64,000 bases of DNA from Yuukianura sp. NJ FZ-2021 (taxonomy: Eukaryota). The notes under the pieces are model-generated. The model searched no databases. It was not told where the DNA came from and was given only the letters and a program-made list of their open reading frames with translations. Of this stretch, positions 34,553 through 64,000 are shown one piece after another. Each line of letters opens with the position of its first letter. The stretch's first letter is position 1. The position numbers and the translations under genes are program-made. The stretch is taken from assembly GCA_046563655.1 (NCBI GenBank), contig CM102285.1:7626001-7690000 (forward strand), written 5' to 3'.

Positions 34553-37500
34553 TGTTGAGAGTGCCGTCAAAACTACCCGTTTCGAGAACACTGCTCGAAT
34601 ACCAGTTGTCCTTTGTGGAAAAATGATTCGTAGTGATACTAAGGGTTGAAGTGTTTTTTAGTAGTTGTTTAATTAACGATTATCTTCTTACTACTAACAA
34701 TGTTCTCTTTTTTCTTAAATTGTATATATATGCACGCACACTTCCTTTTTTTTTTTTTGCAATATTTTCATCTAACATAACGAGGAAAAAAGGTGCCAAA
34801 CTCGGCAAGAGATGGCGTTATAACTCTAAACGAATCTTAGAATAAACACTAAATTAAAGTTACGTAGCCACTTTCTACATCCTCCCACCTTCTTTTGGGA
34901 ATACATATGAACCAAAAGAAATTATTCATAATTCCATTGTCCATACCGGCGTGGCAAAACGATCTTGCGTCCACTTCTTGTCTTGACCTCCCTGTCCTGT
35001 GAATCTTCTGGTTCACCCGACATTTCTTTTCGCTTGTCCGCCTCATCCGCCAGGTGTATTCCTTCCACTGGTACCTCCTCGGGTCGCGGAATCTCCAACG
35101 GGTAGAGTCTCTGCAGTGGCCTCACGATGATTCTGGTGTGGTACTTCATCTTGTTCTTGGATTTTGTTCCCAGGAGTACCTTCACTTTTGCAGTCCGAAT
35201 GTGTGAATCCTTTCCCGGTACCAAAGCCACAATTCGACCCATTGGCCACTGAAAACGTTTCTTGTCGTCTGATCCAACTAAAACGACGTCTCCTACCACG
35301 GGTAGCTTGATTTTCTTCTCTTGAGCCTTCTGGACGAGCAAGCTGAGGTATTCCTTGCGGAAACGGGCCTGTAGTGATTTCTTGAGTTCCTGGACCTTTT
35401 TGAATCTTTGTTGCAGTGTCTTGGAGTTTATCCTTTCTCCTTCTGGAAACTGGGCTTGTGAGAGACCACGAACAAACATCATGGGAGTCAAAGGTCTAAG
35501 ATCGTCAGTGTCCTCGGTGACAGTGGTGAGGGGTCGACTGTTGATTGTGGCTTCCACGGATGACAGACAGGTTCTGAGCTCGTCGTAATTCAGCTTCGCT
35601 TGTCCAAGCATCTTGCGAAGTAGATCCTTTGTTGATCGTACGAGCCTCTCCCACCATCCTCCCCACCATGCTGCGGTTGGCGGATTGAAGATCCAGCGAA
35701 TGCTCTTAACTTCACACTCTGTTTCAATTTTCTTCCAGTTGAGTAATTTGAACAAACTTGCTGCTCCCACGAAGTTTGTGCCATTGTCGCTGTGGAGCAC
35801 GTTAGGTCTGCCGTGTGTGTTGATGAAACGTTCCAAGGATCCAATAAACGCTTCTGTGCTGAGTGATACTACTTGGTCAAAATGGACTGCTCGGTAGACA
35901 GCGCAAGTGTACAGAACGATCCAGACTTTCGTGCCGTCATCTAAGGATAGTGGACCCGCTAAGTCAACTCCCACGTTTTGAAATGCCTCTGCAGCTTCAA
36001 CACGATGTACTGGTAGGGCTACGGGTTCCACAGCAAAGTTCTGAGTTGCATACCTCTTGCAAGTGACACAATTGCGGATGACCTTTGCCACCGCCCTTCT
36101 TCCCTGAAGAATCCAGAACTTCTCTCTAAGCGATCCCAACACCACTTGAATTCCGGCATGACAATTTGCAACGTGAATATGCCGTATCAATTGAGTGACG
36201 ATCGGATGGTCCTTTGGCAGTATGATGGGGCTTCTGAACTCAATCTTGTCAGTCCGAAACATGACCTTTGACCGGACCTTAAGAAGTCCATCTTCTAGCT
36301 TGACCTTAATCCCTTGAATATCATCGGCTCCACGAGGGAAGGCTTCGTCTTGGACGATTTTCATGAGTTGGTTCTGAGCGTCTCTCATTTTCTTGATTGT
36401 GTGGTACTGCGACAAGTCCCGTTTTTCTTTTGGCAGTCTAATATTCCTGACGAATCTGATAACCCACGCCATGACCTTCACATTTTTCGTGTAGACTGAA
36501 AATGGAAGTTGAAACGGTGCTGATTCGGAGATTACTGTCATCGTTCGAGTGGTCTTCTTCCTCTCAGCTATCACTTCCTGTTCGTTTACTACACACGTAT
36601 CAAAAGTGGGCCAATTTTCTTTTCGGTCGTAAAGCCATTTCGGTCCTGAGCTCCAGTCTGAAACCAGCAACTGAGCAGCTGTGCATCCACGGGAAGGCAA
36701 ATCAGCGGGGTTCATCTTGCCGGGAACGTGACGCCAGTCTTCAGACTTCGTGAGCGACAGAATCTCTTTGACTCGGTTACCAACGAAAGTACCCCAATCG
36801 TCGTTACGTTGGATCCAAGAAATAACCGTAGTCGAGTCACTCCAGAAATATTCTGTCACACCCTCCAAGCCCAGCGATTCCTTTGTAGTTTGCAGCAATC
36901 TGGCTCCGATTGTAGCTCCCATTAGCTCAAGGCGCGGAATACTTAATTTCTTTTCTGTACTGGTACCATCCTTGCCCCTTGCTTTCTTCAATGGTGCTAC
37001 GCGTGCTTTGGCTTGGACGAATCTCACGCTGACATCGTCTCCGTGTTCGGCCCTCAAGTAGATAACGGTAGCATAGGCATCTTTGCTTGCGTCGCAGAAA
37101 ACATGGACAGACAAACTTGTCGGTTCCACTCGGTATGGATTCAAATCCCTGGGAACTGTTGTGTCTCGCAATGCCGATGCTTCTTGTAGCCAAGAACGAA
37201 AACGAGCTGCCATGTCATCCTCAAGTTCTTCATCCCAAGTCACATCCTTGGCCCAGGTCTCTTGCAGAATGAGTTTCGGCGGAATGAGCGCAGGAGTGAC
37301 GAATCCCAGAGGATCAAAAACCTTGTGAACCGCAGACAAAATAGTTCTCTTGGTGATGACAGTGGGAAGTGGGGACTGCGTCAAGTCAATTTTTAGTTCA
37401 TCTCTTCTTTTGTCCCACTTGATCCCAAGAACTGATGTAACTTCTTTTCCAGATTCATCTTGTAGTTCGGCATCGATACTTCCGTACTCCCAGCATCTCA

Positions 37501-40500
37501 ATTCCATTTTCGCTTGTGCCATTAGAGATGTCGAATCGTTCCGGAACTTCTTGTACTCCTCGTTGCTGTTCAGTGACGTCACACAATTATCAACATAAAG
37601 TGATCTCCAGAGTTTGTCTGCTACTTCTTTGTCCTCCGGAGCGACGTTCTTCAAGTGGAGTTCGAGTACTGCTGCTAACAAGAAGGGGCTACAGTTGACA
37701 CCAAAAACGACTCGCTTGTGTCTGAATTCTTGCAGTGTCATCCCGTCAGGCTCCTCCCACCACAGAAACTTCAAAAAGTTTCTGTCTTCTTCTTCCACTT
37801 CGATCATCTGGAACGCTTTCCGGATGTCGCTGATTACTCCGATCTTGTTTTCCCGAAACCTCAGAAGAACAGTTGGAATTAATTCCATTAGGTTCGGGCC
37901 TTTGTGCAGGCAATCGTTTAGTGATGGTGCTCTTCTCGTCTTGCAGGAGGCATCAAACACCGGCCTGACAGGAGTCGTTAGACTTTCTGGCTTAAAAACT
38001 GGATGGTGAGGGAGATAGTGACCTTCTAGAGCTGTACCGGTGACCTTTTCAACAAATCCCTCCTGCAGCCATGTCTGAAAGATTTCATGGTACGCCTTCA
38101 GTTGACCCTTGTCTTGTAACTTTTTAGTAGCATTCAAGAGTCTCCGTTCGGCAATCACTCTGTTGCTGGGAATGTCAGGAGCTTCGTCGATCCACGGCAG
38201 TTTCACCTTGTACCGGCCATCATCGCTCCGAGTGACAGACTGGAGGAAGTGTTGTTTAGTTTCTAGTTCAACTTCCATCTTCGACTTGTGCTCTGCAGGA
38301 TCTTTGATACCAATTGTGTCCAAGTCCCAGAAACCAGTGACTGTCACGTCTTCAGCCAAGATGTGCATAGAGATGGCGGATCTTGCGGTACTTTCTGCGG
38401 AATTATTTACTTGTCCGGAAAGAGTCCAGCCAAACGTCGTTTCAATTGCTAGAAGTCCGTTTTGTAATTGATGACTTCTCCCAGTAAACATCTTTGTGTA
38501 GTAGTCAGAACCGATCAGGATCTCGACTTCTGGTGATCCACTGCCGACATCTGAGAGCCAAATATTTTTCTTCTTAAGCTCCTTCATCCAGGATCCTTTC
38601 AGCATACGTGGAACCGCTTCACAGATTTTGCTCTGGTCGAGTACTTGAATAGTTCCAGTCTCGCCCTTACTCCTTCCATGAGGCTGAAGATGAACTTCGT
38701 ACTTGTTGTGTTCTTGTGTGTAATTTCTTCCGCTGAAAAGAGTGTGTCTGAGTATGACTTGTCCACTTGGCAAGAGTTCGAGGTCTCGGGCAGTCGACTG
38801 TAGGATGTAAGAATGCTGCGCTCCAGGATCACAAAGTACTCGTAACGTCTTCTTCTTCCCATTGTTTACTGCAGTGACCAGTAAGGTCTGGAGTAGCACT
38901 TCAGTAGTACAACTAAGATTATTCTGCGTAGTTACTACTGTGTCATCCTTCTTAGGCTCATGTTTGTTGTGCTCATTCTTTTTCTTGACCTCGGGACACA
39001 TTACAGTTTGATGTTTCTTGTGACAGAGGAGACAGCTTACAAAAGACCTACATTTCTTAGAGTTGTGACCCACTTTTAGACAGAGAAAACAGGCATTCTT
39101 GTTTCTGATTTTGCTGTTCATTTCTTCAATCGTCATCTTCTGGGTTTTTCCACAATCCTTGCTCTCGTGTGCCTTGTCACAAAAGATACAGTTTGACGCA
39201 TTTCCAGAGAAGAGACCAGCAGCAGTAGGAACGTCGCTCTTTTCTCTTTGATTCTTCATTCTTGACGTTTCAGAAGCATTCGGGTTCCTTTTTTGATTTT
39301 TCTGGGTAAGACTCATGCTCTGGAAACCCTCCTGTGCCAACTGGATCCTCTGCTCATTCTTCACTTCAGATTTCAAAAACTCCATGAGCCGGTCCAAATT
39401 GGTTTTGTTGTCTCCACTCGTCCCTTGGCCAGTCGAAAGTGTACTTCGCTGCCAGGCTCTCAGTGTATCTTCTGGAAGGCTGGATTCGACCAAAGGAAAA
39501 AGCCACGTTGACGGATCTGCAGAAGCCAACTTGAGTGAATCCAGTGCACGGAGATGTGATTCAATCTGTAAGTACATCTTAGACACTGGAATTTTCTCCT
39601 TCTGAGTCACATTGTGGATGGCGAGTTTCAGCAGCTCCCGAACATAAACTTGAATCAGCAGTGACTCACTTCCAAAACGCTCTTTTAGAGCTTCGACTGC
39701 TTTGGGATAGTTCTCAGCTGTCTGTGGGAAACTGGTTACGAGCTCTCTCGGTTCAGTGCCTTTGTCGAGTGCTTGAATGAGGTACTGGAACTTGTCAGTT
39801 GCATGTAGAGTCTCGTCCTCGTCAATATTTTGAAATTGTGACCAGAAACTCAACCACTCCTTGAGATCTCCGTTAAACGTCCGGAGTTCAGTTTTCGGCA
39901 GTTTGAAGCTCCTTTTGTGTTCTTGGTTCGTTGTACGAGATGTAGCAGATTGACTTTCGTGTGGTGAGTTAGAGCGAACTGGATCAGGACGGAAGAGTAC
40001 TCCTTCGACCTTCAATTTTGCAGTGACGTACTTGTCGCTGTACTCTTCCACCACCTTCGTCTCCTCGTCTTGTTCTTCATCAGTGCAATCTGCGTTCAGC
40101 ATCGCGTCCATGATCGATTGGTCGATACCGCTAAGGTCAGTCATCGCCTTCTCCAACTTGAACAAGTGTACACGCAACAGCTGGAAGTCAGGCTCCTCCT
40201 TCGCAAGTTCGTCGTCGATCTGGTTTGTAGTTCTAGTCAGTTGTGCTCTTAATGGTCGTCTCAGTCGCCTTTCCCGTTCCATTGTCTCTGCTAGGGGGGT
40301 AACTCAGACCAAAAAAGACAGGTATTAGTACAACGTTCGTTCTAAGGTCCTTTATGGTACGGTATCGACCTTATCTATCCCCGAATGCTCGGGGCGGGGC
40401 CCACAAAGTGGCAAGTCAATTAACGTTCAATTGATTGTCTGGCGTATCCTCACGAGGTCAGCAATGCGTCCCTCGGTTGCTTGGATCTGCTATCGTATAT

Positions 40501-48457: not shown

Positions 48458-49444
48458 AAGTAGCTTTCGCTACTTTATAAAAGCGTTTTTGTCCGTCATC
48501 GCGTTTTCCGTCCTAGACCCGTAAGGAAAGCCTGTCCGTCATCGCGTTTTCCGTCCTAGCATAGGGCTCACCATTGAAGAAGTAGTGAAAATGTGAGGGA
48601 AATTATCTCGGAAACTACTGGATCGATTTTGCGCCAGTTTTTTCTAGTGACTATCTCATGACACGGACATGGTCACTATTGAATAATATCCCGGTGTGTC
48701 AACTCCTTCCGGGTCAAAATCGATTTCAAAGGTCACGTGAATTTATGCATTGAAGAAGTGTGGGTAAAAAAAACGCTGCTTGTGAGACTGGAAAGGCATT
48801 TGGCATGGGAGTTGGTTCTCTGCTTAGCAAAAAATCTATTACGCAGTTGACATATACACTTTACACACTTATGCACTGTGTCCACCGTGTGTCACCTGTT
48901 GATTGCCGGGTGTCACCTGTCACCTGCCGGGTGTCACCTGTCACCTGCCGGGTGTCACCTGTTACCTGTTAATTGCCGGGTGTCACCTGTTACATACCGG
49001 GTGTCACCTGTCACTTGCCGGGTGTCACCTGTCACCTGTCACTTGCCGGGTGTCACCTGTCACCTGTCACTTGCCGGGTGTCACCTGTCACGTGCCACGT
49101 ATCACCTGGCACCCTCAAGTGTCACTTGCCGGGTGTCACCTGTCACGCCTCAGCTGTTACGTCTCACCTGTCAAAACCCCCTGGGGGCGGGAAAGTGGGG
49201 GGAACACACCCCCACTCCTCCGGGGGGGGCGGGAAAGTGGGGGGAAACACACCCCCACGCCTCCTGGGGTGCGGAGCAAAAAAGCGGGAAAACACACCCC
49301 TACTCCCCGGGGGGGCGGGAAAGTGGGGAAAACACACCCCCACTCCCCCCGGGGGGGGAGGCGGGAAAGTGGGGGGAACAAACCCCCTTCGGGGGGCCTA
49401 TTGCTTCGCTATTATCAGTATGGGCGGTTTACAACCGGTTTATT
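48458..49444 (+). mobile_element. Chimeric HINE copy
   Basis: 5' hairpin AAGTAGCTTTCGCTACTT and GTCCGTCATCGCGTTTTCCGTC repeats as in the 50965 copy; 3' half as in the 44519 copy. Confidence 0.8.
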
Positions 49445-49446
49445 AT

Positions 49447-50355
49447 AATAGCGAAGCTATTATTATAGAAGACGTCTGTCTGTCCGTCTGTCCGTCTGTC
49501 TGTCTGTCTGTCCGGATTAATTATCTCAGAAACTACTGGTTCGATTTGATTCCGGTTTTCACCAGTGACCATGTCATGACCCGGGCTTGGTCACTATTGA
49601 ATATGACCCCCGTGTGCCAACTCCTTCCGGGTGAAAGGTCAAGGTCAACCGGTTTTATCCCTGGTAACCGGGAAAATGACCTCTACAAAAGTTGTTCACC
49701 TCATCGAGGGGAACACCTTTTGTGTTTAATGTGTGACCATAGGTCACCTACTTCCGGGTCAAAATCGATTTCAAAGGTCATTTGTAATGCAAGTGTGGGT
49801 ACAAAAAACTCTGCTTGTGAGACTGGAAAGGCAATTGGCATGGGACTTGGTTCTCTGCTTAGCAAAAAATCTATTACGCAGTTGACATATACACTTTACA
49901 CACTCATGCACTGTGTTCACCGTCTGTCAGCTGTCACTTGCCGGGTGTCACCTGTCACTTACCGGGTGTCAACTGTCACTTGCCGGGTGTCACCTGTCAC
50001 CTGTCACTTGCCGGGTGTCACCTGTCACCTGTTAATCGCCGGGTGTCACCATTCACATACCGGGTGTCACCTGTCACTTGCCGGGTGTCACCTGTCACGT
50101 GCCTCGTGTCATCTGTCACTCACCCTCAAGTGTCACTTGCCGGGTGTCACCTGTCACGTCTCACCTGTCAACACCTCCTGGGGGGCGGGAAAATGGGGGG
50201 AACACACCCCCACTACCCGGGGGGGGGGCGGGAAAGTGGGGGGAACACACCCCTACTCCCCGGGGGGGAGGCGGGAAAGTGGGGGGAACAAACCCCCTTC
50301 GGGAGGCCCTATTGCTTCGTTATTATCAGTATGGGCGGTTTACAACCGGTTTATT
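49447..50355 (+). mobile_element. HINE copy, head-to-tail with the previous one
   Basis: AATAGCGAAGCTATT 5' hairpin, (GTCT)n, GTCACCT array, CGGTTTACAACCG 3' stem-loop. Confidence 0.85.
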
Positions 50356-50485
50356 AATACTCGAATACTTAACCTAACTTACCATGAAGAAACTAGAGTG
50401 AGAATTAAAATTATTAAAAGTGCCTCTATAATGTTTTTTTAATCCCGAAGCACAAAATTACTAACCAAAAGTAAAATAATTCAAT

Positions 50486-50964: not shown

Positions 50965-51674
50965 AATAAACCGGTTGTAAACCGCACATAAAAAAGTAGC
51001 TTTAGCGTTTAAGTGTTTTTTTAAAAACAAACAGGACTAAACTACCCCCAGGGGGAGTGGGGCCGGGTTCCCCCACTTTCTCACCCCCCCCCCCCCCCCC
51101 CAGTGGAAATGGGGGTGAGGTCAAACAAAGATGTGAAGAGGTAGAATCCGGATAAACCAACAACGGAAGGAATGGGCACAGGACAGTGCATGAGTGTGTT
51201 GGTCAATTGCTGCGTAGTTGATTTTTTGCTAAGCACAGAACCAACTCCCATGCCATTTACCTTTCCAGTCTCACAAGCAGAGTTTTTTCTACACACACTT
51301 CCTCCATCTGCAATTCACTTGACCTTTGAAATTGATTTTGACCCGGAAGGAGGTCACTAACTGGAATGATTTTGCAAACTTGATCTCATCCGGGTCATGA
51401 GCTGTTCATTGGTGAAAACCGGAACGAAATTGGACCAGTGGTTTGCTAGATAACTGTTCTAATGTTTTCACCATTTTACAATGGCGAGCCCTATGCCAAG
51501 ACGGAAAACGCGATGACGGACAGGCTTTTCTTATGTGGCAAGACGGAAAACGCGATGACAGTGCTTCCGCCCATGCCAAGACGGAAAACGCGATGACGGA
51601 CCGGCTTTCCTTATGGGGACAAGACGGAAAACGTGATGACGGACAAAAACACTTTTATAAAGTAGCTAAAGCTA
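50965..51674 (-). mobile_element. HINE copy whose 5' hairpin is interrupted by the CRE element (remainder at 55338-55351)
   Basis: 3' subTIR AAGTAGCTTTAGC (~50994) matches the reconstructed 5' hairpin AAGTAGCTAAAGCTACTT. Confidence 0.8.
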
Positions 51675-54600
51675 ACTTTATTTAACACAACAGAACTGAA
51701 AAAACTTACACCTGCCAGAGGCAGGTTGAGATATTTAAAGAGGTATTGGAAAAATGTTTAAATCATGTAGATTTCGTAGAGTTCTTTTCCTGACGGTAGG
51801 GTTCCCAATATAGAAGTGGCATTTCCTCTTTGGATGGCAAGGCTAATTCGCTGAAAGAGGAAGGATGTTGCTCGATTGTCACCGGTGGCTTCTGAGAGGC
51901 GATGTCCAATGGAATTGAGTAGACGTCGGCCTTCTTCCCCGAAGACTCCAGTTGTCTCAACTGCAATGATGGAAACAATAAATCGATGGTCAAGGTCACG
52001 GTAGAGGTCATGCTTATGGATTTCGGCAATGGCAGCAGGATGACCAAGAACGGAAGATGATGTTGCAAGGTAGGACGCAGCGAAGGTGTCACGGCAGGTA
52101 AAGTCCCAGGCAAGGGAGCGACCGGATTTCCAAGGGATGAGAGTAATTCCATCAGGTCGTTTCCCATCAGTTCTGGAACAGCCGGAAGGTTCTTTCATGC
52201 AAGGTATCCCTGCTGTCCGAAGTGATCTTGCGATGATGTCGTTTACAGAACCATGTCTTGATTGTCTTCCGGCGCTTCTAGTACAGCTTAGGCCATGTAG
52301 TCCATCACTCAGAACTGAAGTTCCACAGGGGCAACGATGGGGTTGGCAGATTTCTGTTCCTAACCGAACTGAACAGGAGATTCGGAATTGTTCATCGGTT
52401 AGGAGAGTGCCCAGAGGAGAAGATGGAATAGCATTCAACCAGTCACCAGAGTGAGGGGCGCAACCAGCGAGCAAACGGGCTTTGTCGGTTTGAGTAGATG
52501 AGTTTTCGAGTAGAGAGGAGTAAATTTGTTTGAAAATCTGCTGTTCCCATTGCTTTTGGACTTTCCCGTCTTCAGGTGTCTCAAAACCCATTTCGGACCA
52601 ATTGAGAGAAGCGATGTCCACTGAGGTGTCAAATGGCGATAGATGACTTGGAAGAAAGGCAGAGATGAGCTCGGCACAACTATGAACTGAAGCCAAAAAC
52701 GAGAGAGTAGCACAGTTCGAAGCATGACGAACACCTAAGCCTCCTTGATTCACCGGCAATGAAGATTGACACCATGCCTCTTCAGTCAAACTTGAGTTGA
52801 GGATGGATTCCAGTACGGTGCGTAGAGCTGAATCATACTCTAAAAGAAGGTCCGTTTCCAGAAATGATGGAGAACATCTGAGGAAGTACAACAGTCTTGG
52901 GGTTGATATTGAGGCCCGAAGTAAGAAAAATGCTACATGGGCAGGCAGGGAGGAGAGTTTTGAAGATAGTGTTTTGAAGTCTTCAGTCTTCAACTTGAGA
53001 ATGCGTCTTGAAGAATCTTTGAAGAGAGGGGCTCCCAAGAGTTCCGCTTGGTCTTTCTCAGGAAAAACAAGTTCAGGAGAAAGTGCTTTGAAGGCGCTGG
53101 AAATCAATTTTCTTTCATCGTTGTCAGCAGATAGAATAATTATTTCACACTTCTTCATGTTGAGGTGTAGTCCAAATGATGGGGCATTTGATTGGATCGT
53201 TTTGAGATTCTCGAGAATTACATCTGGAGAGTCAGCCAGAGTGGCGTCATCCAAGTACCAACAATTGAATTCGGTGGTTAAAGATGAGGCCAGTGGATGA
53301 ATGGTTAAGGCAAAGAGTGCAGGTCCTAGGGGATCCCCCTGCTGGATGCCTAACTTTGATTTGATGCAGTTCTCATTGTAGAATAGGTCAGTTTCGATGG
53401 AGTAAGCTTGAGACACAAAATTGAAGAAATCCGGGAGATGGAGTTTCACGGTGTTCAGCATCTCGTCTCTTCGGAGGAGATTGAAGGCATTAGTAAAGTC
53501 TAGTTTCACGAGAACTTTTGGCGATGAGTGATTGGCGTTGCAGTATATCCGGGCAGCATGGGCGACGGCTTCGGCTCCGTTCTTGACGCCGACCCCTACT
53601 TGAATTGGGCTCAAGACGGACGTGATAATGTTCATCGAGCGAGACAGGATCAGTTTCGATGCAAGGCGTCTCCACGTCAGGCCGATGGCGATTGGCCGGA
53701 TTCCACCCTTTTTCTTTTGTATCGCAATTAGAGAAGCGCCAAAGAAGATTGGTCGTATGTCGTCAGGCAGAGATCCATTGGTGATGAGGTTGCACAGCTT
53801 AGAGATGGAAGAGAGAAGTGTTAAACCTGCATCGCCAGAAGATTTTGATGTTAGCTCCTTTAGAATTTGCGGACGAAGGGAGTCAAGGCCACCGGAGGAA
53901 CCGTTTGGAAATGAAGAAATGGATTTCAGGATGTCACAGTCTTCGAAGATGTTGTCTTTTTGAGGTGGTGGGTTCGGTAAGTTGATAGGCATTGGGTGAG
54001 TCGGGTGTAGTTGGTTGAGAGCATCAATAGTAGAAGAGTCATCCGGGGCAGAACAGTCGTCAGAACATAGAACTCGGATGGATCCACGGATGTCACCGTC
54101 GGCGAGTTTAGATTGGACGAGTTTAGAACAGTTCCACTGTGTTGATGTTTGTACTTGACGCGTCAGGTTGTAATTAGATGTTAAGTTGAATGTAGATGGC
54201 GGAGAGATGGTGTTGAAGCGGTCGACATTTGACTTTACCCATTTGGTGAGGTTCGGTATCTGTTTGTCTTCTTTCTTCGGGAGATGAAGTACGGTATAAG
54301 GAAAGAGGAAAAGTTTTTCCCAGGCTTCAGAAGAGTTCTGGACAACGACTTCATCTATGACGGCGGAGAGTTTGGATGCCACAGCTTGTCGAGCTCCCTT
54401 GGGAATGTGTTTGAGAGTTTGAATCGATTTTTTTAAAACTGCGAGGCGGGAGCCAATGGAAAGAACCGGAGATGATTCAGCAGAGAGGTTGGACCATGCG
54501 ATCCCAAGATACGACTGCTCAATGTGCTTTCGTCCGCTTGCTCTTGTTTTGATGACGTTAGGAAATATTTTCTTGAGTTTTGAACCCATGGTAGTGTCCG

Positions 54601-55337
54601 ATAGTGGTTTGATATGAACTGATGCGCAGAAGAGGTGATATTTTTCTTTAAATTCTTGCTTTTTCATCAAACCACCGGAGACTAGGCGGATATTGTTGGA
54701 GATCCAGTCGTCACTTAGTTTAGAAATTACAGATTTGCTTCGAGTCTCGGTAGTAGAAGTACGATTGGAGAATGTCTGATGTCTGGCTGAATCGTCAACT
54801 CCCAATCCGCAGTCATCTAATGATGACCCGATTCCGGGAATCTCCACGATTGTAGTGTCACAGATCGATGTTTCAGGTTCAGTTTGAAGTACATTGGAAT
54901 TGGAAGAACAGTCTGAATTAAAGATGTTTTGAAAGTTTTCTTGAAAGTTCGGATTTATGTTTGAATTGAAGCTTTCCATTTTCCAAGTTGTAGTTGTCAA
55001 GCCGATGTGTTTCACAGTTCTCAATCCAGAAATTATCGAAGAAGAGACGGAACAAGATAATATTGTCCTGGAGATGAGCAATTGAAGTTTTGTTTGTTTG
55101 AGTTATGAAATGTTTGAGAGCGTATTTTGACGTCAAATTTTCAGCCCTTTGGACGGCGATAGTGGGCCAGTTGACAGGAGTCCGGATGTTGAATGGATGA
55201 AAAAGTATGTCAAAAGATGCGCGACAATGAGATGAACACTTTGATGTAAAGAAGATGGAATTTTGCGCTCTAAATCACTCTCAAAAAATCAAAAACTCGG
55301 GAGCAGCATTTTGCGTGTTGCTTGTTTTGTGTGGAAA
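51675..55337 (-). mobile_element. Full-length CRE-clade (RLE-type) non-LTR retrotransposon
   Basis: 11-bp TSD AGCTAAAGCTA (51664-51674, 55338-55348); single ORF; short 3' UTR with hairpin ACCTGCC-TCT-GGCAGGT ending at AATAAA. Confidence 0.9.
51758..54979 (-). CDS. RFX-like winged helix + reverse transcriptase + CCHC + restriction-like endonuclease polyprotein
   Basis: IRPIAIG, QVGVG, LDFTNAFN, QQGDPLGP, WYLDD (CRE-type RT); CPCG...HGLSC, RH, RPDG...WDFTC (RLE). First ATG at 54979; the frame is open to 55081. Confidence 0.93.
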   Translation of the reverse strand: MESFNSNINPNFQENFQNIFNSDCSSNSNVLQTEPETSICDTTIVEIPGIGSSLDDCGLGVDDSARHQTFSNRTSTTETRSKSVISKLSDDWISNNIRLVSGGLMKKQEFKEKYHLFCASVHIKPLSDTTMGSKLKKIFPNVIKTRASGRKHIEQSYLGIAWSNLSAESSPVLSIGSRLAVLKKSIQTLKHIPKGARQAVASKLSAVIDEVVVQNSSEAWEKLFLFPYTVLHLPKKEDKQIPNLTKWVKSNVDRFNTISPPSTFNLTSNYNLTRQVQTSTQWNCSKLVQSKLADGDIRGSIRVLCSDDCSAPDDSSTIDALNQLHPTHPMPINLPNPPPQKDNIFEDCDILKSISSFPNGSSGGLDSLRPQILKELTSKSSGDAGLTLLSSISKLCNLITNGSLPDDIRPIFFGASLIAIQKKKGGIRPIAIGLTWRRLASKLILSRSMNIITSVLSPIQVGVGVKNGAEAVAHAARIYCNANHSSPKVLVKLDFTNAFNLLRRDEMLNTVKLHLPDFFNFVSQAYSIETDLFYNENCIKSKLGIQQGDPLGPALFALTIHPLASSLTTEFNCWYLDDATLADSPDVILENLKTIQSNAPSFGLHLNMKKCEIIILSADNDERKLISSAFKALSPELVFPEKDQAELLGAPLFKDSSRRILKLKTEDFKTLSSKLSSLPAHVAFFLLRASISTPRLLYFLRCSPSFLETDLLLEYDSALRTVLESILNSSLTEEAWCQSSLPVNQGGLGVRHASNCATLSFLASVHSCAELISAFLPSHLSPFDTSVDIASLNWSEMGFETPEDGKVQKQWEQQIFKQIYSSLLENSSTQTDKARLLAGCAPHSGDWLNAIPSSPLGTLLTDEQFRISCSVRLGTEICQPHRCPCGTSVLSDGLHGLSCTRSAGRQSRHGSVNDIIARSLRTAGIPCMKEPSGCSRTDGKRPDGITLIPWKSGRSLAWDFTCRDTFAASYLATSSSVLGHPAAIAEIHKHDLYRDLDHRFIVSIIAVETTGVFGEEGRRLLNSIGHRLSEATGDNRATSFLFQRISLAIQRGNATSILGTLPSGKELYEIYMI

Positions 55338-55351
55338 AGCTAAAGCTACTT

Positions 55352-56595
55352 AATAAACCGGTTGTAAACCGCCCATACTGATAATTGCGAAGCAATAGGC
55401 CCCCCGAAGGGGGTTTATTCCCCTCACTTTCCTGCCTCCCCCCCCCCGGGGGAGTGGGGGCGTGTTTTCCCCACGTTCCCGCCCCCCCCCGGGAGTAGGG
55501 GTGTGTTTTCCCGCTTTTTTGCTCCGCACCCCAGGAGGCGTGGGGGTGTGTTTCCCCCACTTTCCCGCCCAACCCCCGGGGTAGTGGGGGTGTGTTCCCT
55601 GCACTTTCCCCCCCCCCCCAGGGGGTTTGACAGGTGAGACGTGACAGCTGAGGCGTGACAGGTGACACCCGGCAAGTGACAGTTGCGGGTGACAGGTGAC
55701 ACGCGGCATGTGACATGTGACAGGTGACACCCGGTATATGACAGGTGACACCCGGCATGTGACAGATGATACCCGGCACGTGACAGGTGACAGATGACAC
55801 CCGGAAAGTAACAGGTGACAGCTGACACCCGGCAAGTGACAGGCGACACCCGGAAAGTGACAGGTGACACCCGGAAAGTGACAGGTGACACCCGGAAAGT
55901 GACAGGTAAGAGGTGACACCCGGAAAGTGACAGGTGGCAGCTGACACGCAGCACGTGACAGCTGACACCCGACACGTGAGTGAAAGTTGACAACTCTCAC
56001 CCGGCAAGTGACACGTGACACCCGGCACGTGAGTGACAGGTGACAACTGACACCCTGCAAGTGACAGCCGTGACAGGTGACACGCGGCACGTGACAGGTG
56101 ACAGGTGACACCCGGTATGACAGGTGACATCCGGCGCGTGACAGGTGACACCTGGCACGTGACAGATGAAGTGACAGATGAAGTGTGACAGTTGACAGTT
56201 GAGTGTGTTAGTCAACTGCGTAGTGGATTTTTTGCTAAGCATAGAACCAAGGCCCATGCCAATTGCCTTTCCAGTCTCACAAGCAGAGTTTTTGTTACAC
56301 ACACTTGCATTACAAATGACCTTTGAAATTCATTTTGACCCGGAAGCAGGTGTCCTATGGTCACACATTACACACATGTTACCGGGGATAAAACAGGTTA
56401 ACCTTGACCTTTGACCCGGAAGGAGTTGACACCCGGGGGTCATATTCAATAGTGACCAAGCCCGGGTCATGACATGGTCACTGGTGAAAACCGGAATGAA
56501 ATCGGACCAGTAGTTTCCGAGGTACGTGATCCGGACGGACGGACAGAGGGACGGACGGGCAGACAAACCTCTTTTATCATAATAGCTTCGCTATT
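55352..56595 (-). mobile_element. HINE copy with a long GTGACAG array
   Basis: Same termini and modules as 44519-45670. Confidence 0.85.
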
Positions 56596-58058: not shown

Positions 58059-59441
58059 TTAGGTGCAAAACCAGCAAACTAATACCACAACTATGACTAC
58101 AACAGTAGTACTACCTAAAGCTATTCCTGTTAATGGTAGGCCACCGATAGGTTCCGACACTACCAAAGCCTCAGCGGAATTGCATGGCAACTCCAAATAG
58201 TCCATTAAAGGCTTCACGGAATGTAGGACCAAATTGGTGTCAAAATCTAAAATATGGCTACCATTATACGTGGTGTAGCCTTCCGGATGGATATCAATTA
58301 CGTTAAACGCCTGGGTGAGATTAGTAAGTTGGGGTAGCATGCCTCGTGAGTAGGTCCATTCTTGCAGGAATCTTTGATGTATATAGTACTGTTTCCAGCC
58401 GTTCTCTAACTGTAAATACAGTCGTTTTGGGGATGACAATACACCGATAACTCTAGTTTCATTGATTCCTAGTTCTGTCATTGGTTTGGGATACCCGGGT
58501 GATAATGTTGCTGCGAACCCAAACTCCCAGAGTTGATCATCACCAATGAGAAATGTTTTCTCATAAAATCGGAAAATTAACTCAATTCCCATGTTCGGAG
58601 GGTAATGTTGAAAATAGTTGGCATTGAAAACTTTATACGGAAAAGAGACTTTTCCCTTGGAAAGGCGATAATGGTAGTTGTCATTAAAAATGAAGAACTC
58701 ATTTCCCCACTTTAAAACATGTTCGAAATTCTCCTTACACATACTTTGTATCAAGTTATCCAAGGTAGGGGATGCGTCCCTCCTACCATGCGATAGATTT
58801 CGACTAAATCTATAAAGATCACGCAAGGCATTTCTATCCCTTTTTCCAATAGACATGTTTTTGTCAATGAGATGATACATCGGATGCATCACTGATCCTG
58901 GTACTTCAGAGTGTGATAAGCCTAGTGCATGCCCTATCTCGTGAACCATAACTGAAAATACATCTACTCCTTTTCTACCAGGCGTGGTAGTCCAATTTTC
59001 GGCTGCATCAAAATGAATGTCTCCGCCTAACCCAACATTCGGGTAGTAGGCATGTGCTAAGATCCCTCTTACACCGTCAAAAACCATGACGTCGCCATGA
59101 TAGCCTTTTGCAAATTGAATTGAAATGTCTACAGTTTCATTGACTCTACGACTAAACGTAAAATTCGAAATCTCTTCCCATTTTTGAAAAGCAAACTCAA
59201 AGTTCTCTATGAGATCTTGAAAATCCATCGTAGTGGGAATGTCTTCTTTGACGTCCCAAGTCAAATTTGAAGTTTTCCACTTCCGGTCCAAAATTTGTCT
59301 TTTTCTTCTCATAGGGTACTCCTTCCCCTCATGACAGCGGATGGTATCCTCGTTCTCGTAACTGAGAACGGTAGCCATTGTAGTTGTTGTACAGATCAAG
59401 GTCATCACCCAAATCGAAATAAATCCTATCATCCTCGTCAT
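58059..59441 (-). CDS. Intronless membrane-anchored matrix metalloproteinase (M10A)
   Basis: Signal peptide, RC remnant of the cysteine switch, furin site RRKR, HGD..FDG..G.LAHA, D.HFD..E.W, HEIGHALGLSHS zinc motif, Met-turn SVMHP, hemopexin-like region, hydrophobic C-terminus. Confidence 0.95.
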   Translation of the reverse strand: MTRMIGFISIWVMTLICTTTTMATVLSYENEDTIRCHEGKEYPMRRKRQILDRKWKTSNLTWDVKEDIPTTMDFQDLIENFEFAFQKWEEISNFTFSRRVNETVDISIQFAKGYHGDVMVFDGVRGILAHAYYPNVGLGGDIHFDAAENWTTTPGRKGVDVFSVMVHEIGHALGLSHSEVPGSVMHPMYHLIDKNMSIGKRDRNALRDLYRFSRNLSHGRRDASPTLDNLIQSMCKENFEHVLKWGNEFFIFNDNYHYRLSKGKVSFPYKVFNANYFQHYPPNMGIELIFRFYEKTFLIGDDQLWEFGFAATLSPGYPKPMTELGINETRVIGVLSSPKRLYLQLENGWKQYYIHQRFLQEWTYSRGMLPQLTNLTQAFNVIDIHPEGYTTYNGSHILDFDTNLVLHSVKPLMDYLELPCNSAEALVVSEPIGGLPLTGIALGSTTVVVIVVVLVCWFCT

Positions 59442-62861: not shown

Positions 62862-64000
62862 TTAAATGCCTGCTGTACGATTACGTAACTGGTAACTACT
62901 TTGTACAGGTACTGGCTTGGTCTTAACGACTTTTGCATAGGTCATAGGCTCAGGTAATGGTTCTGAAGGGCGGGAAAAATATCTTTTCAAATTGACTATG
63001 TTATGTCTGCCTGCACTTTCCTCAGAACCAAACAACTTTAGGCCGTAAACTAATGGCGTAACCTTCTCCGAAATGACATAAGGGCCTTCCCACTTAAATG
63101 CAAACTTTTTCATGATTCCTTTAGCCTTGTCTGACTGTATGTGAGTGCGCAGAAGGACTAAATCACCAACCTCAAAGCTGTCTGACCTACGTTTTTGATT
63201 GTAGTACTTGGCCTGGGAAGCTTGCGACTTTTCTAAGTGTTCCCTGGCTAATCGATAGACTTTAGAGAGACGCTCTATCAGGGTCAATTGGTAGTCTGTC
63301 CACTCGGCAAATTCGTCGCTCTGAGAGTCGTCTAAGGCCAAATCAAAGGGAGTGGAAAGCTCACGACCGAAATTTAACATAGAGGGGCCAAAACCTGTCG
63401 AATCGCTGATCGCAGTACGCAAAGCCATGGCAACTTCTGGGAGATTCTCATCCCATTTGGAATGTTTACGTGCTACGTAGGCTCTAAGAATGGCAATGAC
63501 GTTCCGATTGACACGCTCGGTAATGTTCGCCTGAGGATGATAGGTCGAAATGAATTTTAGCTTAACCTGCCAAGTTTTGCAAAGTTTCTTAAACAACTCA
63601 GAAGTAAATTGAGAACCATTGTCACTAAGTAACGCTCTAGGCCTACCGAAACGACAAAATACTTCCTGCTCGAGCTTTTGAATAATCTGAGGAGTCGTAG
63701 CCTCTCTGAGGGGAAAAATCTCAACCCATTTCGTAAAATGATCTGTCACGACTAGCAAAAACGTATTTTGACGTTGAGTTTTCGTAAGGGGGCCTATCAA
63801 ATCAAGGGCTAACATATCCCATGGACCTCTAGTCTGGACACTTTGGAGCTCACCTACTGGTTTCGTAGTGGGATTTTTAGTCTTTTGACAAATGTCGCAG
63901 GACGTAACGAATTTGTAAATGTCCTCGTGCATACCAAACCAGAAGACTCGACGTAGTAATCGGTAAAGGGTCTTTCGGAAGCCCATGTGACCTGACTCGG
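62862..64000 (-). CDS. Gypsy/Ty3 integrase (3' end of pol, continues beyond the window)
   Basis: H..C..C zinc motif, LDLIGP, SDNGSQF, YHPQANITERVNR, GPY; resembles Osvaldo/Ulysses-type integrases. Confidence 0.95.
   Translation of the reverse strand, partial: ESGHMGFRKTLYRLLRRVFWFGMHEDIYKFVTSCDICQKTKNPTTKPVGELQSVQTRGPWDMLALDLIGPLTKTQRQNTFLLVVTDHFTKWVEIFPLREATTPQIIQKLEQEVFCRFGRPRALLSDNGSQFTSELFKKLCKTWQVKLKFISTYHPQANITERVNRNVIAILRAYVARKHSKWDENLPEVAMALRTAISDSTGFGPSMLNFGRELSTPFDLALDDSQSDEFAEWTDYQLTLIERLSKVYRLAREHLEKSQASQAKYYNQKRRSDSFEVGDLVLLRTHIQSDKAKGIMKKFAFKWEGPYVISEKVTPLVYGLKLFGSEESAGRHNIVNLKRYFSRPSEPLPEPMTYAKVVKTKPVPVQSSYQLRNRTAGI

Follow-up and report, generated by a model that had tools for sequence, protein, structure and literature searches.

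A genuine RFX-type winged helix lies upstream of the reverse transcriptase (RT) in a non-LTR retrotransposon of the restriction-like endonuclease (RLE; R2-like) type that is full length and autonomous and has a single ORF. The element lies on the minus strand of the window, the 64-kb stretch of DNA analyzed here. We regard it as probable, at roughly 60%, that an R2-like element captured this RFX module, has inherited it since, and uses it to help pick the insertion site. A full-text literature search found no published description of a non-LTR element with an RFX domain; the original prediction, which had been made from the sequence, likewise knew of no described example.

Structure of the element

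The retrotransposon occupies 3,663 bp (51675 to 55337; all coordinates are window positions, and all features of the element are on the minus strand). Its ends were set by an 11-bp target site duplication (TSD), an empty-site paralogue, and empty-site contigs. Comparison of the sequences at both ends places the 5' copy of the TSD, TAGCTTTAGCT on the element strand, at 55338 to 55348 and the 3' copy, also 11 bp long, at 51664 to 51674. The empty site was seen in an uninterrupted paralogous repeat unit and in contigs of public runs, which have loose ends at 51674 and 55338, confirming the TSD. The element has neither LTRs nor a poly(A) tail, its 3' end reading ...AATAAAGT, and only one copy exists in the 64-kb window.

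A frame of 1,107 codons is open from 55081 to 51758. Translation from its first ATG, codon 35, yields a protein of 1,073 amino acids (51758 to 54979 by ORF analysis, stop codon included). The 5' UTR comprises 358 nt up to this ATG (54980 to 55337, with the frame open from 55081), and the 3' UTR comprises 83 nt (51675 to 51757) with an AATAAA near its end. The intact ORF and perfect duplication that had been claimed were both verified, together with the empty site.

The protein consists of a disordered N terminus, the RFX winged helix, an N-terminal extension conserved throughout the clade, the RT, a CCHC knuckle, and the RLE, in this order. Residues 35 to 113 (54743 to 54979) form a Ser/Thr/Asn-rich stretch that is predicted to be disordered in the full-length AF2 model (pLDDT below 50 for residues 1 to 113); no PHD or C2H2 pattern occurs in residues 35 to 113, and Pfam finds nothing there. 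The extension (residues 205 to 345; 54047 to 54469), delimited by alignments, contains the motifs LKxIPKGAR, NLTxWVK, and KLADGDxRGAIRLL. The RT (residues 454 to 683; 53033 to 53722; Pfam RVT_1, E value of 4.2e-18) has its catalytic YLDD at residues 609 to 612 (53246 to 53257), and D611 and D612 are invariant in an alignment of 84 sequences. The CCHC zinc knuckle CPCGTSVLSDGLHGLSC (residues 917 to 933; 52283 to 52333), identified by motif and alignment, lies between the RT/linker and the endonuclease; in the same 84 sequences, C933 never varies and C917, C919, and H929 hardly ever do. The endonuclease core (residues 964 to 1027; 52001 to 52192) was defined by alignment and by structural match to R2. 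Its residues E964-P965, R975-P976-D977-G978, W992-D993, and K1023 are invariant or nearly invariant among the 84 sequences, and we take them to be the PD-(D/E)xK site, as in R2-type endonucleases. Pfam detects no AP-endonuclease family in the protein.

The element thus combines a YxDD RT, a CCHC knuckle with a C-terminal PD-(D/E)xK-type endonuclease, an R2-like architecture, and a TSD without terminal repeats. Its assignment to the RLE type in the original prediction is corroborated by the RT, CCHC, and RPD..D..K motifs and by the full-length model, whose best structural matches are R2 proteins (the top seven in Foldseek; E values of 8e-22 to 9e-19). VIA-align superimposes 695 to 759 residues on R2 chains (Z scores of 19.9 to 23.4), starting at model residues 241 to 314 and ending at 1099 to 1106, whereas L1 ORF2p gives similar or higher Z scores (up to 27.5) over fewer aligned residues (507 to 676). 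Because the alignment with R2 starts only at residues 241 to 314, the RFX domain is N terminal to the shared core.

Sequences of the element are already present in public databases. Contigs of four runs from two studies are about 99% identical to it, and they diverge from the window sequence 8 to 12 bp inside both element ends, with other letters following, which suggests that further copies exist. Among the ORF differences listed between copies in public reads, 25 of 33 are synonymous, compared with an expected 24%. Judged from these sequence comparisons, the family looks young and under selection, and the element may be active at present.

Identity of the RFX-type winged helix

Residues 123 to 197 (54491 to 54715) are an RFX-type winged helix, exactly where the domain had been predicted, and Pfam, profile comparison, AF2, and Foldseek agree on this. 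Pfam RFX_DNA_binding (PF02257) matches residues 125 to 195 with 28.6 bits against a curated cutoff of 27 (E value of 2.3e-6), covering positions 6 to 76 of the 79-position profile. The score of this copy is just 1.6 bits over the cutoff. A domain profile built from the same stretch of six related retrotransposon proteins matches the solved RFX5 (8zjr_M; E value of 9.4e-12) and RFX1 (1dp7_P; E value of 4.2e-9) structures over the whole domain (positions 6 to 80 of 83).

The AF2 model of the domain (pLDDT of 89.0) has the topology H-E-H-H-E(wing)E, that is, the three helices, beta hairpin, and single wing of the RFX-type winged-helix fold. It retrieves only two PDB matches at E values of 0.001 or less, RFX5 (TM score of 0.84) and RFX1 (TM scores of 0.79/0.86), and the next match has an E value of 1.3. 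The domain is also confident inside the full-length model, in which the blocks covering residues 121 to 180 have pLDDT values of 84 to 96. Nine residues of the RFX1 DNA-binding domain (DBD) contact DNA (PMC2533330, in part); our alignment with RFX structures shows partial retention of the basic wing (R..G.R) and of the Y.GI segment. The DBD stands alone, as Pfam finds no RFX5_N, BCD, or dimerization domain of RFX factors in the protein. Likewise, no zinc finger or Myb family appears before the RT in Pfam, even when E values up to 10 are allowed.

Distribution and history of the domain

A search for further RFX-plus-RT proteins yielded seven RT-bearing relatives with an RFX domain, two of them from a springtail. 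In the RT-RLE tree, all seven belong to a single clade of 12 rows (local support of 99; FastTree only). PF02257 matches at the same place in P0004 (38.8 bits), P0005 (32.4 bits), P0007 (44.7 bits), and P0108 (43.2 bits), and in P0003 at 18.9 bits, under the cutoff. P0006 matches our own domain profile, a circular result because that profile includes P0006. Loci L004 and L079 likewise carry an RFX domain. The springtail relative P0007 bears the automatic name "RFX-like transcription factor daf-19" in a public database, a mislabel because the protein also has RVT_1.

The element domains are far more diverged than their cellular counterparts (PF02257 scores of 19 to 51 bits versus at least 90 bits for cellular RFX domains), and the element proteins share 42 to 51% identity overall versus 22 to 33% in the RFX domain. 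Despite this divergence, W126, K141, F173-P174, G193-I194, and W196 are kept across the element domains. In the RFX-domain tree, the element domains form a group of their own, separate from cellular domains of the RFX5, RFX1-3, and multi-RFX types (SH-aLRT of 86, for a tree whose support is below the star level).

The RFX domain is inherited within the element lineage, since (i) it is inside a TSD-bounded element, (ii) it sits at the same place in relatives, and (iii) these relatives belong to one RT clade; a chimera is excluded as its origin. The RT-RLE core works without it, as seen from relatives that have only a PHD finger, C2H2 fingers, or no recognizable N-terminal domain; the last applies to all 42 long metagenome ORFs. 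The sister lineages of the RFX clade (for example, P0002 of Diaphorina citri, P0014, P0017, and P0020; P0008 and P0010) have the same RT-CCHC-RLE core, 36 to 41% identical from residue 204 to the end, but differ in the N-terminal module, which is a PHD finger only or C2H2-like fingers. P0002 aligns with P0001 from residue 204 onward only.

PHD finger and RFX domain occur together in P0005, P0108, and locus L079, and two of the seven RT-bearing relatives have retained the finger upstream of the RFX domain. Because a sister lineage has the PHD finger only, it is most likely that the RFX domain was added behind a PHD finger and that this copy later lost the latter. Such a history would have an ancestor that already possessed a PHD finger taking the RFX module once from a cellular RFX-like gene, with the domain passed on ever since and the PHD finger dropped here. 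The prediction that the RFX domain stands in place of zinc fingers therefore holds in part: the domain is genuine and Pfam finds no finger before the RT of this copy, but the relatives with both modules and the sister lineage with PHD alone indicate a different history from a simple replacement.

Comparison with known systems

R2 inserts into 28S rDNA and carries a Myb domain along with C2H2 fingers. The R2 proteins (for example, R2Bm and R2Tg; structures 8gh6, 9nl2, 9nl3, and 9dou) likewise have a single ORF with N-terminal DNA-binding modules, RT, CCHC linker, and C-terminal RLE, and these modules are N terminal to the core (PMC7650587, in part). The RFX domain would occupy the place where R2 has its zinc finger and Myb target-binding modules. 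The element differs from R2 in having an RFX winged helix, no finger or Myb domain in Pfam, and no Rfam RNA gene in its flanks, and its sequence similarity to R2 is weak (27 bits; E value of 7e-6). We rejected membership in R2 on the basis of the flanks without rRNA, the absence of a zinc finger or Myb family in Pfam, and the 27-bit score.

The original prediction placed the element in the CRE clade, which is a candidate assignment; homologue searches returned proteins that are unnamed or carry generic names. Classical CRE members typically insert into spliced-leader RNA genes. No such gene was found at the target here, which is a minisatellite repeat unit with no Rfam family or tRNA between 47000 and 58000. 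Compared by description, CRE (CRE1, CRE2, SLACS, and CZAR), NeSL/Utopia, R4, and HERO share the domain order and target-primed reverse transcription with the element. The N termini of RLE clades vary, with one to three zinc fingers, an Ulp1 protease in NeSL, and an RNase H in oomycete Utopia, and neither RFX nor PHD is mentioned for these clades in excerpts of the source (PMC4640811).

Cellular RFX factors (RFX1-7 and DAF-19; DBDs 1dp7 and 8zjr) share the domain family and fold, and the target palindrome described below has the two-half-site layout of their X-box. They differ from the element in that the latter is mobile, lacks RFX5_N, BCD, and dimerization domains, and has a much more diverged domain. 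A host RFX transcription factor was rejected as an identity, given the lone DBD, the RT/RLE remainder, and the TSD bounding the whole insertion. An L1-RFX5 fusion isoform of catfish also joins RFX and LINE protein parts in one polypeptide; it runs the opposite way, as there the host RFX5 gained an exon derived from L1 ORF1p, whereas in the present case the RFX domain was acquired by a mobile element (PMC12129022, in part).

Target site and possible roles of the domain

The rebuilt empty site reads AAGTAGCT-AA-AGCTACTT on the plus strand and contains a perfect 18-bp palindrome (8+2+8) that is centered on the TSD to within half a base. The left part of the target palindrome lies at 51660 to 51674 and its last three bases (CTT) at 55349 to 55351, past the other TSD copy. 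The rebuilt site has no other perfect palindrome with arms of 8 bp; the 64-kb window has 37 such centers, and 0.24% of its positions lie within 2 bp of one. The target agrees with the X-box consensus GTNRCC(0-3N)RGYAAC (PMC5752003) at 9 of the 11 specified positions in both orientations, and an equally good match occurs within 2 bp of 1.9% of the positions in the window. Dimers of RFX factors bind to X-boxes and insert wing W1 into the major groove (PMC2533330, in part).

From these observations, we infer DNA binding by the RFX domain, a role in target choice, and any dimeric binding mode. The domain would bind double-stranded target DNA and help to choose the insertion site, and insertion would proceed by target-primed reverse transcription, with two nicks 11 bp apart, almost symmetric about the dyad of the X-box-like palindrome, producing the 11-bp duplication. 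In a stronger form, which we consider possible but doubtful, an R2-like lineage was naturally retargeted by capture of a transcription factor DBD, and two RFX domains read both X-box-like half-sites and thereby place the nicks symmetrically 11 bp apart. The target evidence comes from one insertion site only, and RFX-guided targeting is for this reason put forward as a hypothesis.

Minisatellites make up the locus itself, a repeat unit about 1 kb long. Contigs leaving the element near its 3' end (at 51687) run into letters unlike this target; therefore, there is no sign of strict site specificity. It could also be the endonuclease or DNA structure, instead of the RFX domain, that favors the palindrome.

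Somewhat unlikely, in our estimate, is that the RFX domain binds DNA without positioning the endonuclease, either by tethering the protein or the RNP to chromatin regions that abound in X-box-like sites or by acting on the element's own expression, while the RLE and linker pick the cleavage site. Relatives have a PHD finger at the same end of the protein, and since PHD fingers are usually chromatin readers and not sequence readers, the N terminus of the clade may serve tethering generally. The unlike flanks of the other contigs point in the same direction, as does the fact that HERO-type RLE elements mostly lack site specificity (PMC4640811, in part). However, a TSD whose center lies half a base or less from that of a perfect X-box-like palindrome is not what tethering at a distance would predict.

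It is distinctly improbable that the winged helix was reused to bind RNA of the element itself, or a host protein, instead of double-stranded DNA. The N-terminal regions of R2 also contact template RNA, and a switch to another ligand would fit the strong divergence of the element domains in both identity and Pfam score. Binding of single-stranded nucleic acid is known for some winged helices (PMC8998557, in part). Nevertheless, the elements retain the basic wing segment and the G-I/W core, and a palindromic target fits DNA binding. An artifact, be it a chance Pfam match or a chimeric frame created by a retrotransposon landing in or beside a host RFX exon, might be suspected from a score barely over the cutoff and from the transcription factor name of one relative, but is highly improbable given a domain that lies within a TSD-bounded element, recurs at the same position in 42 to 51% identical relatives of other organisms, has profile and fold matches specific to RFX, and lacks the BCD and dimerization domains of RFX factors in Pfam.

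Implications

Hosts are well known to domesticate transposon domains. The element described here would be a clear case of the reverse, in which a mobile element took a DNA-binding domain from a host transcription factor family. It also exposes an annotation problem, as public databases label retrotransposon ORFs of this kind RFX transcription factors.

On one conserved RT-RLE core, the N-terminal module has been exchanged among PHD, PHD plus RFX, RFX, and C2H2, so that target choice may evolve through domain capture; this suggests that RLE elements change their insertion site by swapping DNA-binding modules. RLE-type LINEs such as R2 are the model of site-specific retrotransposition and are under development for gene insertion, where retargeting is the central problem (PMC13580325 and PMC13586686, each in part). 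The compact winged helix, for which recognition of two half-sites is an established mode, is a candidate targeting part, and as a small module of defined structure and known recognition code, it could redirect R2-type gene insertion tools. If RFX-guided targeting is true, the element would represent a natural case of programmable target choice through the exchange of modules (PHD, C2H2, and RFX) in RLE LINEs.

Identity of the N-terminal domain

The single ORF of the retrotransposon at 51675-55337 (minus strand) is open for 1107 codons (55081..51758, minus strand), and its first ATG is codon 35, giving a protein of 1073 aa. A Pfam scan of the 1107-codon frame that listed families up to an E value of 10 reported two of them, the reverse transcriptase (RT) family RVT_1 at residues 454-683 (E 4.2e-18) and RFX_DNA_binding at residues 125-195 (71 of 79 profile positions; 28.6 bits, curated cut-off 27). 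Zinc-finger and Myb families were absent from that scan, in agreement with the original prediction that no finger precedes the RT. The residues in which an RFX-type winged helix had been proposed, 123-197, read as they had been quoted and map exactly to 54491-54715.

Because the Pfam score of 28.6 bits is marginal alone, the RFX identity was tested in three further ways. A profile made from an alignment of six retrotransposon RFX domains (A2) matched the solved DNA-binding domains of RFX5 (8zjr_M, E 9.4e-12) and RFX1 (1dp7_P, E 4.2e-9), both end to end; the next match was the RFX-like domain of ARID2 (E 0.11), and the remainder was noise (E > 0.2). AlphaFold2 run on A2 gave a confident model (pLDDT 89.0, pTM 0.76) with the order helix, strand, two helices, and beta hairpin. 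When this model was compared with the PDB by Foldseek, 2 of 443 matches had E values of 0.001 or less, and these were RFX5 (TM 0.84/0.85) and RFX1 (TM 0.79/0.86); other winged helices appeared from E 1.3 upward. The domain was again confident in a model of the full-length protein, in which residues 1-113 are disordered. Such matches to RFX5 and RFX1 only, together with the confident fold, identify residues 123-197 as a domain specifically of the RFX type, beyond a generic winged helix. Profile comparison and structure prediction thus both bear out the original prediction.

Catalytic core and likeness to R2

The protein has a YLDD motif at residues 609-612, a CCHC knuckle at 917-933, and conserved residues in the endonuclease region (E964-P965, R975-P976-D977-G978, W992-D993, and K1023). 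Judged by these hallmark motifs, the ORF is that of a non-LTR retrotransposon with a restriction-like endonuclease (RLE). A full-length AlphaFold2 model was obtained from an 84-sequence alignment of the clade (A6) with a pLDDT of 86.9 and a pTM of 0.82. In a Foldseek comparison of this model, R2 proteins took the first seven places (E 8e-22 to 9e-19), and LINE-1 ORF2p, Prp8, and group II intron RTs came next. VIA-align superposed 695 to 759 residues on the R2 chains (Z 19.9-23.4), from model residues 241-314 to residues 1099-1106, whereas L1 ORF2p gave similar or higher Z scores (up to 27.5) over fewer aligned residues. By sequence, R2 is distant (27 bits). Since the model is R2-like, the sequence is distant, and the flanks contain no rRNA, the element is R2-like in architecture but is not an R2. 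R2 is described as binding its target DNA with N-terminal zinc fingers and a Myb domain (PMC7650587), whereas the element has the RFX domain at the corresponding position, on the N-terminal side of its R2-alignable region.

The original prediction had placed the element in the CRE clade, which is one candidate placement beside NeSL, R4, and HERO. None of the proteins from homologue searches or the cluster look-up carries a LINE-clade name, and the automatic names “type-2 R2DM” and “type-1 R1” on springtail proteins were not accepted as clade evidence. In the ESM Atlas, the best score for the whole protein was 0.89, under the 0.9 level, and residues 36-345 had no match.

Distribution and history of the RFX domain

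A whole-protein search yielded 58 proteins, of which 52 were scanned with Pfam (P0051, P0053-P0056, and P0060 were left out for size). RFX domains were found in P0004 (JGI, 38.8 bits) and in two proteins of Folsomia candida, P0007 (44.7 bits) and P0005, where the domain (32.4 bits) is accompanied by a PHD finger (31.2 bits). P0003 (JGI) scored under the cut-off (18.9 bits), and in P0006 (Logan) the domain was recognized by eye, its match to our own profile being circular because P0006 is included in that profile. An exhaustive profile search added P0108 (JGI), with a PHD-like cysteine pattern and an RFX domain of 43.2 bits, and the short PHD-RFX fragments P0085, P0086, and P0090. Two of the 80 metagenome loci have the domain: L079 (43.8 bits, with a weak PHD finger of 20.6 bits) and L004 (50.7 bits). 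A PHD finger alone is present in P0002 (Diaphorina citri), P0014, P0017, P0020, and others; P0002 is 39% identical to the window's protein in an alignment that covers residue 204 onward only. P0008 and P0010 have C2H2-like fingers at the N terminus. In the first 330 residues of all 42 long metagenome ORFs, Pfam recognized no family above its cut-off.

Other ORFs combining an RFX domain with an RT therefore exist, and they are related. A FastTree phylogeny of the columns from RT to RLE, with the four most distant matches as the root, unites all seven RFX proteins that have an RT in a single 12-row clade (support 99). This clade also takes in the two C2H2 proteins and three proteins with truncated N termini, and it is sister to a group of P0002, which bears a PHD finger, and P0012. 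In a tree of the RFX domains, a short alignment of weak resolution, the element-type domains form one group of 22 rows (SH-aLRT 86), separate from the RFX5-type, RFX1-3-type, and five-domain cellular proteins. On the simplest reading, a PHD-bearing ancestor gained the RFX domain once, several descendants, including the element, lost the PHD finger, and one branch changed to C2H2 fingers. We only infer the order of these PHD, RFX, and C2H2 events, because it depends on outgroup rooting and a fast tree method.

The surrounding clade is large. A first metagenome scan with the single protein gave no matches; the metagenome contigs contain 515 relatives among 599 candidate stretches, and 1165 proteins matched a profile at E values of 0.001 or less. 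The 3' tails of four closer metagenome loci, L001, L067, L072, and L060, provided no usable junctions; one of them has a poly(A) end and may be a transcript.

Several relatives are of interest in their own right. P0007 carries RVT_1 and shares 42% identity with the window's protein over 94% of the length; its database name, “RFX-like transcription factor daf-19,” mislabels a mobile-element ORF. P0018 (1508 aa), of the same clade, has a complete UCH domain (199.7 bits) after the endonuclease and a weak N-terminal PHD finger, which represents either a further accessory-domain capture or a fused gene call. In the N-terminal columns of A6, most of the 84 clade members share the pattern G.C..C(10)G..H.HGPR...C.GS, which Pfam does not recognize and which may be an undescribed zinc-binding module of the clade. 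When the element's RFX profile was used for the exhaustive search, P0061-P0067 ranked first. These are cellular-looking proteins of 867 to 1089 aa (RFX_DNA_binding, 280-293 bits) that have five RFX domains in tandem and lack RT motifs, and they were rejected as retrotransposons. To our knowledge, no such five-RFX-domain family has been described.

Insertion site and target repeat

The body of the element (55337-51675, 3663 bp) lies between two direct copies of an 11-bp sequence, TAGCTTTAGCT on the element strand, at 55348-55338 and 51674-51664. A tblastn search of the 64-kb window with the ORF matched this copy alone. The empty form of the site occurs in contigs from public runs, which pass from the 3' copy of this target-site duplication (TSD) to the letters following the 5' copy, and the reverse (places 51674 and 55338). 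An intact ORF within a perfect TSD, as originally proposed, is thus what we found.

The element sits in a repeat unit of about 1 kb, its target repeat, which is present at ~48600-50440 (plus strand) and at 51000-51663 and 55349-56500 (minus strand). The unit combines a 21/28-bp TGTCACC-type minisatellite of 7-bp phasing, G+C-rich repeats of 43-45 bp, and a unique part. On the opposite strand, an uninterrupted paralogue of the unit (~49400-49540) has a single, diverged version of the TSD sequence. The unit occurs in tandem and inverted copies, with inverted arms of up to 340 nt that are 78-94% complementary, and has a very high read depth in public runs; it may be a satellite or another mobile element. 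Genes for rRNA, snRNA, and tRNA were looked for in the flanks and none were found, so the idea that the repeat is a multicopy RNA gene was rejected.

On the plus strand, the rebuilt empty site reads AAGTAGCT-AA-AGCTACTT, a perfect palindrome with 8-bp arms, and the TSD centre is no more than half a base from the dyad of this palindrome. The window contains 37 centres of 8-bp-arm palindromes, compared with about 5 in composition-matched shuffles, and 0.24% of window positions are within 2 bp of one. Cellular RFX domains are described as binding the X-box, 5'-GTNRCC(0-3N)RGYAAC-3' (PMC5752003), in dimeric form, the wing lying in the major groove (PMC2533330). In either orientation, the core GTAGCT-NN-AGCTAC fits 9 of the 11 positions that the X-box specifies; 1.9% of window positions are within 2 bp of a match as good (9/11). 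The palindromic empty site, a single site, fits a model in which RFX domains would read the two half-sites of the palindrome and the two nicks would be symmetric. The domain would bind DNA, recognize it as a dimer, and influence target choice, all three being putative properties. Contigs depart from the element close to its 3' end into letters unlike the target, so strict site specificity is not indicated.

Further copies and activity

Four runs from two studies contain the element at about 99% identity; the five public runs listed include none recorded as RNA and have no bearing on expression. Many differences from the window's copy are common to all runs, and the contigs therefore represent the family and not the window locus. 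Among 33 in-ORF differences drawn from the best-supported rows listed (100 more rows lie beyond), 25 are synonymous, compared with 24% expected for random changes; two fall in the RFX domain, one synonymous and the other H156Y. The contigs diverge from the element 8-11 bp short of its 5' terminus and 12 bp short of its 3' terminus and then run into other letters, as expected for further copies elsewhere. The synonymous excess among the listed differences and the divergence at the ends, with the intact ORF and perfect TSD, point to probable recent activity.

Contigs of three runs match only 54701-54845 (145 bp, upstream of and into the RFX domain), with other letters on both sides. On the RFX side they encode KNNIQEASGA, compared with SNNIRLVSGG in the window's copy, and contigs also show a joint from 54728 to 54802 that skips 73 bases. 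These observations suggest that the same genome also contains a diverged second subfamily with the RFX domain.

Other ORFs in the window

All three further ORFs are on the minus strand. The ORF at 34922-40282 is intact, encodes 1786 aa, and belongs to a BEL/Pao-type LTR retrotransposon, with DUF1759, RVT_1, Peptidase_A17, Integrase_H2C2, and DUF5641 domains. A 374-aa ORF near the window end (62862-63986) appears to be part of a Ty3-like LTR element; it has an rve integrase core, Integrase_H2C2, and an SH3 domain like that of Tf2-1. An uninterrupted 460-aa matrix metalloproteinase ORF (58059-59441; Peptidase_M10, E 1.5e-47), 2.7 kb from the element, has a weak hemopexin repeat and a hydrophobic C-terminal stretch.

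Relation to known systems

The variable accessory domains described for RLE elements are one to three zinc fingers, an Ulp1 protease, and RNase H (PMC4640811), and PHD fingers are described in ORF1 of Jockey-type LINEs (PMC4120745). No report of an RFX domain in a non-LTR element was found in the freely accessible full-text literature; a family consensus may already be deposited in Repbase or Dfam without mention of the domain. Judged by title and abstract, the listed publications that mention both RFX and non-LTR elements treat RFX as a host factor. The nearest reported item, catfish L1-RFX5, is the reverse case, a host RFX5 with an exon derived from L1 ORF1p (PMC12129022). The element works like an R2-type LINE and is a member of a very large, mostly unnamed clade, and it is of clear interest for research on target choice by LINEs and for the engineering of R2-type insertion tools.
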